Positions 12,533 through 55,593 of a DNA stretch of 55,593 bases are shown in pieces. Under the pieces are notes generated by a model, which ran no database searches, was not told the DNA's origin, and saw only the letters and a list, made by a program, of their open reading frames with translations. A program made the position numbers and the translations under genes. Origin of the DNA: Candidatus Beckwithbacteria bacterium (GTDB taxonomy: Bacteria; Patescibacteriota; Microgenomatia; UBA1400; CG1-02-47-37); the NCBI GenBank assembly GCA_043803225.1, contig JAZDKF010000047.1, forward strand, positions 1 to 55,593, given 5' to 3'. How positions within the stretch are numbered: the stretch's first letter is position 1; every line of letters starts with the position of its first letter.

Positions 12533-13147
12533 ATGAAGCGAGCGGTGGTGTTATTAAACGGCGAATTGGCAGATACCCGATTAGTTACAAAAATAATTAA
12601 AAAATCTGATTTAATCGTTGGGGTTGACGGCGGCACTAAACAGATTTTAAATCTAAAATTAGTACCTGATTTAATTATCGGCGATCTTGATTCATTAAAA
12701 GTATTGCCTAAAGATGTTCCGTTAATCAGGTTTCCTAAAGATAAAGATAAAACAGATTCAGAATTAGCAATAGAGTTTTTAATTAAACAAGGATATCAAC
12801 AGGTTGTAATAGGTGGTTTTTTAGGCAAAAGACTAGACCATTTTGTCAGCAATATTTTAAATTTAGCCAAGTCAAAAATTCAAGTTCAAATAATTGAAGG
12901 CAGACAGATAATCTATTTTGTTAAAAATTCTTTAACAATCAAGGGAGAAAAAGGCGATTTAGTGTCATTGATTCCCCTATTAGTTGATTGTTCGGGAGTT
13001 ATTACGACCGGTTTAAAATGGCCTTTAAAGCAGGAAATTCTGAAAATAGGTTCCAGCTTGGGCATAAGCAATGAAATGACTGGAACAAAGGCAACAATTA
13101 AGTTAAAATCAGGATTGCTAATGTTAGTTCACACCAAGCGCCAGTAG
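12533..13147 (+). CDS. thiN: Thiamine pyrophosphokinase
   Basis: VGVDGG, GDLDS, KDKTDSELA, GKRLDH, GLKWPL, GISNE; TATAAT 6 nt before ATG 12533. Confidence 0.9.
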   Translation: MKRAVVLLNGELADTRLVTKIIKKSDLIVGVDGGTKQILNLKLVPDLIIGDLDSLKVLPKDVPLIRFPKDKDKTDSELAIEFLIKQGYQQVVIGGFLGKRLDHFVSNILNLAKSKIQVQIIEGRQIIYFVKNSLTIKGEKGDLVSLIPLLVDCSGVITTGLKWPLKQEILKIGSSLGISNEMTGTKATIKLKSGLLMLVHTKRQ

Positions 13148-13214
13148 CTCAGCGGATTAGAGCGAATGTCTTCGGAACATTAGGCCGTAGGTTCAAGTCC
13201 TACCTGGCGCACCA
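13138..13214 (+). tRNA. tRNA-Arg(UCG) with encoded CCA
   Basis: GCGCCAG/CTGGCGC-A-CCA; anticodon arm AATGT-CTTCGGA-ACATT. Confidence 0.93.
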
Positions 13215-52350: not shown

Positions 52351-53259
52351 TTAACTCATTTGGGCTAAAGCTTCTACCCTGTCTTTAATACTCGGGTGGG
52401 TGTTAAATAAGCCGGAAAACCAGCCGATAGAATCGTGGCGGTTCTTTAATGGATTAGTAATATACAGATGCGCCGTGGCTTTGTTGGCTACTTCCAAAGG
52501 TTCTTTATCAGAATCAATTTTTTTTAACGCCCGGATTAAGCCGTCAGGAAAACGAGTCAGTTTCACGGCTGAAGCATCAGCCAAGAATTCACGGCGGCGG
52601 GAAATCGCCAGCTTAATCAAGTTAGCAATCAAAGGTGACAGCAAAGCCAGAACCAAGCCGGCGCAAAACATAACCAATTGCAGTTGGTTATTGTCTTTAT
52701 TATCAGAATGGTTCCGGCCGAAAAAAGTTGAGCGTAAAAACCAATCGGCCAGCAAAGTGACCGTGCCGACCATCACAGTCACTATCGACATCAAACGCAT
52801 GTCGAAGTTACCCACATGAGACAGTTCATGGGCAATGACGCCTTCCAGTTCAGTCCGATCCAGCTTGGCCAGCAAACCAGAAGTAGCGCAAATAACCGCG
52901 TGCTGGGGATCACGGCCGGTGGCAAAAGCATTTGTGGCAGTGTCCTCAATCACATACAATTTCGGCTTAGGCAAACCGGCGGCTAAGCATAAATTCTCCG
53001 CGACCGTGTAAAAAAGAAAGTCTTTCTGGCGATTAGCTTCCCTGGCTCCGGCCAAGCCTAGAATAATTTTGTCAGAGAAATAATAGGAAATATAGGACAT
53101 TAAGCCGGAAAAAATTAAAGCCAAACCAACCCAAGATAAGCCATAACCCGAGGCTTCGCCCAGAATGTAGGCAAAGCCAGCTACAAACACAGTGAAAACA
53201 ATCATTACTAACAGGCTTTTACGCTTATTGCTGTCTACCTGTTCATAAACATTCAGCAT
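52351..53259 (-). CDS. htpX: M48 zinc metalloprotease HtpX
   Basis: NAFATG, GVIAHELSH, SRRREFLADA, THP. Confidence 0.93.
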   Translation of the reverse strand: MLNVYEQVDSNKRKSLLVMIVFTVFVAGFAYILGEASGYGLSWVGLALIFSGLMSYISYYFSDKIILGLAGAREANRQKDFLFYTVAENLCLAAGLPKPKLYVIEDTATNAFATGRDPQHAVICATSGLLAKLDRTELEGVIAHELSHVGNFDMRLMSIVTVMVGTVTLLADWFLRSTFFGRNHSDNKDNNQLQLVMFCAGLVLALLSPLIANLIKLAISRRREFLADASAVKLTRFPDGLIRALKKIDSDKEPLEVANKATAHLYITNPLKNRHDSIGWFSGLFNTHPSIKDRVEALAQMS

Positions 53260-53262
53260 AGG

Positions 53263-53850
53263 TTACAAATCAACCTTGGGCGTTTTCATCTCCTCGGCAG
53301 AAACTTCGACATGAGTGCCGGTTGCCGCTGTTTTTAAACCCGGTTTTTGGCTGAATTTAAACAGCGAAGCGACTAAACTGCTGGGAACAGTGACGATCAT
53401 GACATTGAAGTCAGCGGTTAAATCAATTAAAGTCCGACGGGAATACATGACTTTGTCAGCGGTGTCTCGCAGCTCATCCATGAGTTTCTGGGTCGGTCCG
53501 GCTGCCTGAAGTTCCGGAGTTGATTCAAAAACCGCTCTTATCGGTGCCATAGCCTGGGAAACAACCGAAGCCGCATCAACCAGTTTTTGAGAGTCGTTAG
53601 ACTTAACTGCCTCTAAAATAGTTTTCCGAGCAGCAGTAATCTTATCCAGAGCTTTTTGTTCATGCTTCATGTAGCCTTTAACTGAAGCGACTAAATTCGG
53701 GATCATTTCGGCTTGGCGTTTCAGCTGGTTACCAATCTCCTGGATTGAAGCAGTCAATCTGGTTTCCAGAGTTTTAAACTTGTTATAAACAGACAGAACA
53801 TAGAAGCCAATGGCTAGGCCTAGGGCTAAAAGAATCATGGGTAAAGACAT
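53263..53850 (-). CDS. lemA: LemA family protein
   Basis: N-terminal TM, YN.F, QLKRQAEMIPNLVASVKGY, FN..I...P; AGGAGG SD. Confidence 0.9.
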   Translation of the reverse strand: MSLPMILLALGLAIGFYVLSVYNKFKTLETRLTASIQEIGNQLKRQAEMIPNLVASVKGYMKHEQKALDKITAARKTILEAVKSNDSQKLVDAASVVSQAMAPIRAVFESTPELQAAGPTQKLMDELRDTADKVMYSRRTLIDLTADFNVMIVTVPSSLVASLFKFSQKPGLKTAATGTHVEVSAEEMKTPKVDL

Positions 53851-53925
53851 AAAGCCTCCTACTTATTATTTCAATTGCAGGCTTAGTATAAAACCTTAAC
53901 TATTATAAAATCAAGTTTAGTTCCC

Positions 53926-53954
53926 TTGACGGTGAAGAGATTACTTGAGATAAT
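53926..53954 (+). promoter_or_regulatory. Putative tRNA-Asp promoter
   Basis: TTGACG, 17 nt, GATAAT. Confidence 0.5.
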
Positions 53955-53964
53955 GTCAGTGTTT

Positions 53965-54038
53965 GGACTCGTAGTGTAGTTGGTTAACACGCGTCCCTGT
54001 CAAGGACGAAATCGCCGGTTCGAGTCCGGTCGGGTCCG
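53965..54038 (+). tRNA. tRNA-Asp(GUC)
   Basis: GGACTCG/CGGGTCC acceptor, anticodon arm CGTCC-CTGTCAA-GGACG. Confidence 0.95.
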
Positions 54039-54153
54039 CAACGTACAAAATCAAAGATTTTTACGTTGCTGAAACTTTTAAATTTTGAAATAATTTATTA
54101 CGTTTCGCCAGCGTTTGCCTGTCAACGACTCATCTGCCCGGAAAGGAGGAAAA

Positions 54154-54657
54154 ATGCTAAAAGAATTTTTAAAGACATTGCGGCTTAACGAACAAAAAAT
54201 CAGCATGCTTTTAGGGGCAGTGGTTGTGGTAATTGTGGGAGTGTTAATTTATAACTACTTTACCGGCATTAACCGTCAACCGGAAGTGGCTCAATCCACA
54301 GAAGAGCAACCATTGGTTAAAATCCACAAGGTAGCCAAAGGTGAGTCTTTATGGCAAATCAGCCTGAAGTACTACAACAATGGTTATAAATGGGCGGAAA
54401 TCGCCAAGGATAATAATTTGGTTAATCCTGACCTGATCGAAGTCGGCCAGGAGTTAATTGTTCCTGAATTAGAAGAAACACCGATGACCATCTCGACCTC
54501 TGAATATCTGGTAGTTAAAGGCGATAACCTTTGGAAGATCGCGGTCCGTGCTTATGCAGACGGCTATCAATGGGTGAAAATCTGGGAAGCCAACAAGGCA
54601 AATATTCCCAACCCGGACCTGATCGAAGTCGGAACAAAATTGGTATTGCCAAGATAA
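54154..54657 (+). CDS. Membrane-anchored protein with two LysM domains
   Basis: TM helix, HKVAKGESLWQIS..YY..G.KW..IA..N...NPDLIEVGQ.L twice; AAAGGAGG SD before ATG 54154. Confidence 0.92.
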   Translation: MLKEFLKTLRLNEQKISMLLGAVVVVIVGVLIYNYFTGINRQPEVAQSTEEQPLVKIHKVAKGESLWQISLKYYNNGYKWAEIAKDNNLVNPDLIEVGQELIVPELEETPMTISTSEYLVVKGDNLWKIAVRAYADGYQWVKIWEANKANIPNPDLIEVGTKLVLPR

Positions 54658-54713
54658 TCTCTGGCAAATTTAAGTTGGAAAAACCTGTTAATTCAGGGTA
54701 GAATTAGTGGCGC

Positions 54714-54786
54714 GCGGGAGTAGCTCAATTGGTAGAGCGTCTGCTTCCCAAGCAGAAGGCAGCGAGATCATAGCTCGTCTCCCGCT
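54714..54786 (+). tRNA. tRNA-Gly(CCC) with atypical T-loop
   Basis: GCGGGAG/CTCCCGC-U73, anticodon arm TCTGC-TTCCCAA-GCAGA, T-arm GCGAG-ATCATAG-CTCGT. Confidence 0.88.
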
Positions 54787-55241
54787 CAAAAAATTTTCAA
54801 AATCTTGTATTCCACCGGGCCGTTAGGAGTAGAAAATTTAACAATCTCGTTGGTTTTTTTACCAATAATGGCTTTTCCTAAAGGTGACAGTTGGGAGATC
54901 AAGTTTTTAGCCGGGTCAGATTCATAGCCGCCGACGATAGAATACTGAAGGTCTTTTTTCCCGTCATTTAAAATCACCTGATTGCCGATCTGGACCGTAT
55001 CGTGTCCGCTGGATTTAACAATTTCAGCGGATTTAATTAATCTTTCCAAGTACCGGATCCGGGAATCCAGGAAAGACAGCCGGGCTTTAGATTCTTTGTA
55101 ATAACCGTTTTCCGATAAATCCCCCATTTCCCGGGCTTTTTGCAAGTTCTCCACCACTTCCGGCCGTTCGGCTAAATACTTGTCTTTTTGCTTTAACAAA
55201 TCATCATAGCCGGCTTGAGTAAAGGGAATTTGAGCTGTCAT
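54786..55241 (-). CDS. greA: Transcription elongation factor GreA
   Basis: GDLSENGYY, VQIGNQV, IS..SPLGKAIIG; start at ATG 55241. Confidence 0.95.
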   Translation of the reverse strand: MTAQIPFTQAGYDDLLKQKDKYLAERPEVVENLQKAREMGDLSENGYYKESKARLSFLDSRIRYLERLIKSAEIVKSSGHDTVQIGNQVILNDGKKDLQYSIVGGYESDPAKNLISQLSPLGKAIIGKKTNEIVKFSTPNGPVEYKILKIF

Positions 55242-55593
55242 AGAAAATTCAGTTGAAAAATTGAGAAGTTTAAGTAAGCAGCAAAACCGACCCAGAGTAA
55301 ATAGGGTACTAACAGCCAAGCGGACAATTTACTATAGCGACTGAATTGGAGAATTACAGCCAAGATCAGACCCCACAAAATTATTATTTCCACCAAGGCC
55401 AGACCCGGGTTTTTTAATCCGAAAAACAAGACTGACCAGAGACTATTAAAAGCTAAGTGGATTAAAAATAAACCTTTAGGCGCGTTTTTTTGCCAGGCAA
55501 GATACCAGGATAAACCCATCAATAAATAGAGTGTGGTCCAGACAGGGGCAAACAGCCAATCAGGCGGGGAAAAGGCCGGTTTGGCTAGATACT
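55238..55593 (-). CDS. tspO: TspO/MBR tryptophan-rich sensory protein (5'-partial, runs off the window)
   Basis: Frame open to the window end: KPAFSPPDWLFAPVWTTLY; LNSLWS-like FNSLWSVLFFG, LLVPYLLWVGFAAYLN. Confidence 0.92.
   Translation of the reverse strand, partial: YLAKPAFSPPDWLFAPVWTTLYLLMGLSWYLAWQKNAPKGLFLIHLAFNSLWSVLFFGLKNPGLALVEIIILWGLILAVILQFSRYSKLSAWLLVPYLLWVGFAAYLNFSIFQLNFL

Follow-up and report, generated by a model that had tools for sequence, protein, structure and literature searches.

A glycine tRNA gene with an inverted 54/58 pair in its T loop, probably a working elongator tRNA-Gly(CCC)

Can an elongator tRNA do without the standard U54-A58 pair of its T loop? The question is raised by a tRNA-Gly(CCC) gene in a stretch of 55,593 nucleotides, hereafter called the window, that belongs to a genome bin (G000) of 97.8% completeness with 47 tRNAs. 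In this gene, the pair is inverted to A54/U58, a change referred to below as the swap. U54 has been treated as universal except in eukaryotic initiators (PMC7912444). Our literature search found no description of an A54/U58 pair in T loops. Zagryadskaya et al. are said to have studied the tRNA pair 54-58 in 2003.

The gene was called as tRNA-Gly(ccc) at 54714-54787 by ARAGORN, as the last of the eight tRNAs in the window. Rfam RF00005 matched 54714-54786 over its full length with 60.3 bits (gathering score 29). This is the lowest score among the eight; the other seven reach 61.7-74.7 bits, and their T loops follow TTCRA (Rfam). The gene and its parts are as follows.

54714 to 54786, forward strand: tRNA-Gly(CCC) gene, 73 nt (ARAGORN, Rfam, cloverleaf fold, conservation)
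54714 to 54720, pairing with 54779 to 54785, forward strand: acceptor stem GCGGGAG / CUCCCGC (direct reading)
54728, forward strand: A15, which faces position 48 in the Levitt pair (canonical relatives have G15)
54747 to 54749, forward strand: anticodon CCC, positions 34-36, which reads GGG (direct reading, ARAGORN)
54757 to 54761, forward strand: variable loop AGGCA (direct reading)
54761, forward strand: A48 (C48 in canonical relatives), which results in an A15/A48 combination
54762 to 54778, forward strand: T arm GCGAG-AUCAUAG-CUCGU, in which 54762-54766 pairs with 54774-54778
54767 to 54773, forward strand: T loop AUCAUAG, made of A54 (54767), U55, C56, A57, U58 (54771), A59 and G60
54786, forward strand: discriminator U73 (direct reading)

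The 5' part of the tRNA consists of the acceptor strand GCGGGAG, the bases UA, the D arm GCUC-AAUUGGUA-GAGC and a G, and the anticodon arm is UCUGC-UUCCCAA-GCAGA. Stems of 7, 4, 5 and 5 bp and a class I variable loop are present, and the minimum-free-energy fold is a cloverleaf (-30.7 kcal/mol, z -3.4). CCA is not encoded; CAAA stands directly after the gene. The T stem is built from G49-U65, C50-G64, G51-C63, A52-U62 and G53-C61. Its loop does not match the canonical U54-U55-C56-R57-A58-N59-Y60, to which only positions 55-57 conform, and the elbow nucleotides G18, G19, U55 and C56 are standard. Bacterial glycine identity has been assigned to U73, G1-C72, C2-G71, G3-C70, C35 and C36 (PMC9976931), and this set is complete here. 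A swapped T loop within otherwise intact stems and identity elements was the starting point of the original prediction; direct reading confirms the loop, ARAGORN and Rfam the gene, and the cloverleaf fold and the full glycine set bear out the remainder. That description did not include A15 and A48, both of which are read in the sequence and make an unusual Levitt combination.

Is the swap a real feature, and has it been kept by selection? The family was surveyed in 14 species genomes; five species from four genera (G000, G003, G011, G001 and G002) have the swap. The 73 nt recur without change in the assemblies of G003 and G011, two species of a different genus, with flanks that are 78-82% identical to those in the window. 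Identity to the window tRNA is 97% in G001 (loop AUCGUAG, U47) and 92% in G002, where the T arm reads GCGGG-AUCGUAA-CCCGU, position 26 is A and pair 52-62 has changed from A-U to G-C, a compensatory replacement. A54 and U58 are fixed in the five species, with variation at purine 57, position 60 and pair 52-62. Contigs from four runs of four groundwater studies, compared over 53900-55593, list no difference inside the tRNA and many differences in the flanks, at 54458-54619 and from 54840 onward. Assembly or read error is excluded, since the 73 nt recur in G003 and G011 and the four-study contigs agree; no canonical loop appears in these contigs, and close relatives display no random decay. A TAnAAT-like box (TATAGT in G001) lies upstream of the tRNA in all five species with the swap, and the remaining spacer diverges. 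At 80% identity, the neutral chance of 0 changes in 73 nt is about 0.8^73, or about 1e-7. The 100% identity of the tRNA against 78-82% in the flanks, the compensatory change at 52-62 and the kept upstream box thus show that the gene is under purifying selection, not in decay.

The pairing pattern was followed further in 14 Gly tRNAs of the order, which comprise 12 distinct sequences. Every stem position is paired across these 12, and pairs 49-65 (G-U), 50-64 (C-G) and 51-63 (G-C) are invariant. At 54-58, nine sequences have U-A and three have A-U, with one-sided states in none; at 15-48, nine have G-C and three have A/A. A15 occurs in all five swap genes and G15 in 9/9 canonical Gly tRNAs aligned. 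The complete genome of a sister genus (G009) has a tRNA-Gly(CCC) at the same locus with the canonical loop UUCGAGA and G15/C48, and the tRNA-Gly(CCC) of other families in the order have canonical loops as well. A loose sequence pattern for a Gly acceptor start, an NCC anticodon loop and ATCNT gave mostly chance matches in 286 genomes of the order; the tRNA-like matches listed were the five known swap genes only. One genome of the order (G157), marked as unpublished, underlies none of the conclusions. It had been proposed that the double change at 54 and 58 is compensatory rather than a sign of decay, and the matched 9 U-A and 3 A-U pairs, held by selection, agree with this. The further suggestion of a functional variant in a CPR-like lineage is supported as well, and the proposed survey for the same loop finds it in close relatives, with the sister genus canonical.

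The G009 tRNA-Gly(CCC) is the obvious reference for what has changed. The two tRNAs are 86% identical and have the same locus, length, stems, anticodon arm and identity set; they share G18, G19, U55, C56 and the EF-Tu T-stem pairs. The window tRNA differs from it in A54/U58 (vs U54/A58), A15/A48 (vs G15/C48), A59-G60 (vs G59-A60) and G7-C66 (vs A7-U66).

Does the neighbourhood of the gene account for its loop? Four features surround it.

53965 to 54038, forward strand: tRNA-Asp(GUC) with a canonical T loop (ARAGORN, Rfam)
54115 to 54657, forward strand: LysM-domain protein gene (Pfam PF01476, two stretches, E 3e-25)
54675 to 54704, forward strand: putative promoter, TTGGAA-18-TAGAAT (consensus scan), ending 10 nt 5' of the tRNA
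54786 to 55241, reverse strand: greA, whose stop codon (54786-54788) overlaps U73 of the tRNA by one base

Both protein-gene neighbours had been pointed out before. The upstream gene does carry two LysM domains in ORF 54115-54657, and the discriminator does overlap the greA stop on the opposite strand, by one base (54786). The order tRNA-Asp, LysM, tRNA-Gly recurs in G011, G003, G001, G002, G009 and on contig C37 of the bin; because canonical-loop relatives share it, the LysM neighbour is uninformative on the loop. The greA overlap is the same in G003, and greA does not adjoin the tRNA in G011, G001 and G002. A link between the swap and greA adjacency was considered and rejected, as this adjacency is limited to G000 and G003; the one-base overlap is therefore incidental. 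In the contigs of all four groundwater runs, 54039 is joined to 54112 with a single C between and 72 bases absent; other strains therefore lack most of the sequence that separates tRNA-Asp from the LysM gene.

How does the gene relate to other tRNAs that could read GGG, a codon that makes up 14.8% of the Gly codons in the long ORFs of the genome? Another GGG decoder had been named as something to look for, and the G000 bin offers two candidates: a second tRNA-Gly(CCC) on C37 and a tRNA-Gly(UCC) on C13. The bin also has a tRNA-Gly(GCC) on C26. The C37 tRNA has a canonical loop, a UCC-like body and a 4-nt variable loop. Apart from the swap gene, no CCC tRNA was found in G003 and G001, where GCC and UCC tRNAs stand beside it, nor in G011 and G002. 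No CCC tRNA was found in G005 (91% complete). In G007, G010, G013 and G004, the same locus has only a UCC-like CCC tRNA. CCC tRNAs at this locus have either a GCC-like or a UCC-like body, and the latter is 81-85% identical to tRNA-Gly(UCC). The UCC-like type seems to be a remolded UCC tRNA, shifted in its anticodon, which took the place of the original gene. At one syntenic site, the CCC tRNA has two unrelated bodies across species, even within one genus.

The second CCC tRNA of G000 stands in a block that resembles the window.

C37 (locus L031), 1 to 1881: second block of HtpX, LemA, tRNA-Asp, LysM and tRNA-Gly(CCC), corresponding to 52778 to 54786 of the window

Over bases 1-1732, C37 copies 52778-54615 of the window (HtpX, LemA, tRNA-Asp, LysM) at 67-73% identity; the remaining C37 genes have no close copy in the bin. 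C37 is as near to G003 as the window is. In G003, the swap tRNA precedes greA, TspO and transketolase genes. TspO is the last gene on the window contig, which breaks off at the very point where genes like those of C37 would come next, and C37 itself goes on with a methyltransferase and the transketolase genes. Relatives with a UCC-like CCC tRNA co-occur in the same samples. C37 is either a duplicated locus or a mis-binned contig of a co-occurring relative that takes the place of the window contig's missing continuation. The bin also holds two quite different tRNA-Trp(CCA) (C1:25459-25533 and C27:78971-79045), two different tRNA-Arg(UCG) (window 13138-13214 and C56:244-316) and two tRNA-Leu(UAA) (on C13 and C26). 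These doubled Trp, Arg and Leu tRNAs may reflect a second population in the bin. tRNA-Ile(GAU), tRNA-Asn and tRNA-Ala(UGC) were not found in the G000 bin, and just one CAU tRNA was found there.

Such copies bring up the possibility that the swap gene is decaying or redundant and heading for loss, to be replaced by the C37 CCC tRNA or by tRNA-Gly(UCC). A canonical CCC tRNA does occur in the bin, on a stretch that is either a paralogue of the locus or mis-binned, the locus has only a UCC-like type in G007, G010, G013 and G004, and the Rfam score is the lowest in the window. Against this, the gene is fully conserved across genera between diverged flanks, has 0 stem mismatches in the five species and a compensatory 52-62 pair in G002, is invariant in the four-study contigs that vary around it, keeps a promoter-like box and is the sole CCC tRNA in four relatives. 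The usual marks of a pseudogene (stem mismatches, unmatched substitutions, conservation no better than that of the flanks) are absent. Decay is thus extremely unlikely as an explanation and close to refuted.

Could the altered loop instead mark a tRNA set aside for the cell wall? The original prediction raised a role in peptidoglycan bridges. In such a role, this tRNA-Gly would donate glycine to FemAB-type transferases for cross-bridges and would be kept off the ribosome, as in Staphylococcus. In S. aureus, Rietmeyer et al. described proteogenic tRNA-Gly with G49-U65, C50-G64 or U50-A64, and G51-C63, whereas the non-proteogenic ones have A49-U65, U50-A64 and A51-U63 and an EF-Tu affinity about eight-fold lower (PMC7826273). 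The tRNA-Gly(CCC) studied here carries the high-affinity set G49-U65, C50-G64 and G51-C63, and the weak set is absent. It resembles NP1-NP3 of S. aureus and S. epidermidis (PMC7826273) in being a glycine tRNA with departures in the D and T regions from a FemAB-encoding genome. Unlike them, it has strong EF-Tu pairs, intact elbow nucleotides (G18, G19, U55, C56) and a CCC anticodon, stands alone as a CCC tRNA in several relatives and has no association with Fem genes.

That last point rests on a search for Fem/MurM-type transferases, which had been proposed as a check. Three FemAB-family ORFs (PF02388) of 265, 367 and 347 aa were found in G000.

C12, 98343 to 100240 (L159, 239 to 2136): two adjacent FemAB-family ORFs
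C24, 20928 to 21866: the third FemAB-family ORF

The adjacent pair on C12 sits beside a UvrD-like helicase gene. G003, G011, G001 and G002 have two or three PF02388 genes each, so that all five swap genomes encode the family; such genes are also present in G009, G007, G010, G013 and G004, whose CCC tRNAs have canonical loops. PF02388 was thus found in 10/10 family genomes tested, whichever type of CCC tRNA they carry. Because FemAB is equally present in the five canonical-loop relatives, the swap is not associated with it: the transferases expected by the original prediction exist in G000, but their link to the swapped loop does not hold. In side view, tRNA-dependent peptidoglycan branching may be general in the family. 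A coiled-coil insert of FmhB/FemA has been modelled in contact with the T and D arms of the tRNA, and the FemX of Weissella, which lacks the coiled coil, recognises the acceptor arm only (PMC7826273). The Fem ORFs match the Pfam model at about 5-235 and 300-405, with almost nothing between, and appear to be without a staphylococcal-type insert. By analogy, the CPR Fem enzymes would resemble the FemX type and read the acceptor arm only.

The presence of PF02388 genes in all swap genomes, and of tRNA-Gly(UCC) and the canonical CCC tRNA of C37 as possible readers of GGG, would leave room for a cell-wall tRNA. The strong T-stem set, the intact elbow, the equal distribution of PF02388, the apparent lack of the insert that would touch the T and D arms, the status of the swap gene as the only CCC tRNA found in four relatives and the occurrence of the swap in tRNAs of at least 10 other amino-acid identities all argue against it. 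A peptidoglycan role is accordingly very unlikely, and the proteogenic EF-Tu pairs, the missing FemAB association and the swap in other amino-acid tRNAs leave this part of the original prediction unsupported.

Does the inverted pair serve to keep modifying or cleaving enzymes away? TruB needs U54 and A58. An escape from m5U54/m1A58 modification had been suggested for this tRNA. Profile searches, in which control genomes scored as expected, did not find TruB (PF01509), TrmA-type (PF05958), TrmFO (TIGR00137) or TrmI (PF08704) enzymes in G000. With these four not found there is no known 54/58 modification in G000 to escape, and the suggestion becomes moot. TruB is present in G001 and G002 (swap) and in G009 (canonical), and was not found in G000 and G003 (swap) or in G007; an association between the swap and TruB was rejected, as its presence or absence follows no pattern among these six genomes. 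Three more tRNAs of G000 have non-canonical T loops, with C55 or G55.

C26, 7462 to 7535: tRNA-Phe
C27, 74276 to 74350: tRNA-Ile with a UAU anticodon
C12, 83373 to 83444: tRNA-Cys

The loops of this set are UCCGAUU and UCCGACU (C55) and UGCAAAU (G55), and C55 recurs in Gly tRNAs of the order (G001, G036, G019 and G038). C55 or G55 in three G000 tRNAs and C55 in the order's Gly tRNAs indicate that the T loop is less constrained in this lineage. Aside from its loop, the tRNA-Ile has a genomic UAU anticodon, which suggests direct reading of AUA.

In a broader form of this idea, the tRNA would decode normally and its inverted pair would have been selected to hide the T loop from TruB or from a toxin or defence nuclease that cuts T loops. 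Selection maintains the swap, which has come up independently in many lineages, and G001 and G002 have both a swap tRNA, probably unmodified there, and TruB. However, G000 has no known T-loop modifier and TruB was not found in G003; the swap affects 1/47 G000 tRNAs and would not counter a general T-loop threat; and the C55 and G55 loops of three other G000 tRNAs fit relaxed constraint better. Given loose constraint on the T loop, a variant that is nearly neutral or mildly compensated is a better fit than modifier escape, and selection for concealment is an unlikely cause of the swap.

We consider instead that the gene is probably a working elongator tRNA-Gly(CCC), with a lineage-fixed case of a rare, recurrent and little-described T-loop variant. 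In this scheme, it would be transcribed from its own promoter-like site and CCA would be added after transcription. RNA-library contigs (run X3) cover the gene, although contigs cannot show transcription, ends or level. Charging by GlyRS would proceed through U73, G1-C72, C2-G71, G3-C70, C35 and C36, EF-Tu would bind by way of the strong pairs 49-65, 50-64 and 51-63 of the T stem, and the tRNA would decode GGG codons on the ribosome. The T loop would be closed by A54/U58 instead of U54/A58, with a contact geometry that we infer from the bases; because U55, C56, purine 57, G18 and G19 are kept, docking of the elbow to the D loop should be preserved. The inversion would have arisen once in the family, from a canonical GCC-like tRNA-Gly(CCC) such as that of the sister genus. 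The changes of G15 to A and C48 to A would have accompanied it, and it has been kept by purifying selection ever since. Some observations weigh against this scheme: the gene may be dispensable, in that tRNA-Gly(UCC) could read GGG by wobble and no CCC tRNA was found in G005; it could be redundant in G000, given the canonical CCC tRNA of C37; the turnover to a UCC-like type in four other genomes could point to a lower fitness of the swap form; A15/A48 is an unusual Levitt combination; and the gene scores lowest with Rfam among the tRNAs in the window.

How widespread is the A54/U58 loop beyond this family? One genome per species (about 186,000 species) was scanned for a common D arm followed by G53-A54-U55-C56-R57-U58-N-N-C61. 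This returned at least 120 loci with at least 123 ARAGORN tRNAs, at least 115 of them distinct, counts that are not phylogenetically independent. Among the matches listed, there are 29 Lys, 26 His, 20 Met, 11 Phe, 9 Ile, 9 Thr, 6 Gly, 5 Asn, 3 Asp, 3 Ala and 2 Val tRNAs, that is, 11 amino-acid identities from many phyla. The hosts listed are Kiritimatiellia, Planctomycetota, Chloroflexota, Actinomycetota, Myxococcota, Bacteroidota, Proteobacteria, Bacillota and several Patescibacteria groups, with some cultured isolates. In an even sample of the phylum, 5/401 genomes have a swap tRNA (three His, one Thr and the Gly of the window). The swap is thus an infrequent yet recurring natural variant of many bacterial tRNAs, here in a tiny bacterium from groundwater.

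Position 60 covaries with the inverted pair. Among the matches listed, U60 occurs in 2/115 swap loops, compared with 277/355 canonical tRNAs on the same loci; position 60 in swap loops is mostly C, A or G, and in the Gly family G or A. It is plausible that U60 is avoided since its pairing with A54 could misfold the loop. The other tRNAs with A54-U55-C56-R57-U58, for example tRNA-His of Kiritimatiellia and some Patescibacteria and tRNA-Lys, tRNA-Met and tRNA-Phe of various phyla, have in common with the window tRNA the inverted pair, a purine at 57, U55/C56 and the avoidance of U60. They differ from it in identity and lineage, and most have G15-C48 or A15-U48 and C60 rather than G60. The eukaryotic initiator tRNA-Met (A54, A58, A60) is similar in that A54 replaces U54 (PMC7912444); it has A58 and hence a purine-purine pair, unlike the window tRNA with U at 58 and elongator features.

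Are A15 and A48 part of the same design? A co-adapted core and elbow of A15/A48 with A54/U58, A59 and purine 60 could alter recognition by T-loop readers and give the tRNA a partly separate fate, an idea that we regard as unlikely. Among the matches listed, A15/A48 is found in 2/89 swap and 2/227 canonical tRNAs. A general tie between A48 and the swap was rejected, A48 occurring in 7% of swap and 10% of canonical tRNAs among the matches listed. The candidate design of A15/A48 with A54/U58 is known from Gly(CCC) here and from single His, Asn and Thr tRNAs elsewhere: with an AUCGUAR loop, it is found in tRNA-His of G300 (Patescibacteria), tRNA-Asn of L126 and tRNA-Thr of L142. If such a design were true, TruB, nucleases and Fem-type transferases could see this tRNA differently from other glycine tRNAs.

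The locus is a clean natural experiment, since a single bacterial family carries both the canonical and the inverted pair in the same tRNA-Gly(CCC). With the inverted form unchanged from genus to genus, an elongator tRNA can do without the reverse-Hoogsteen U54-A58 pair. In genome annotation, A54/U58 loops lower covariance-model scores, and such genes should not be taken as pseudogenes or cell-wall tRNAs. This single gene carries little practical weight, as the variant turns up repeatedly in public genomes. At the DNA level, the change of U54 to A puts GATC, a common methylase and restriction site, at positions 53-56 of the tRNA (54766-54769 in the window); this holds for any T loop with A54 and is probably incidental.
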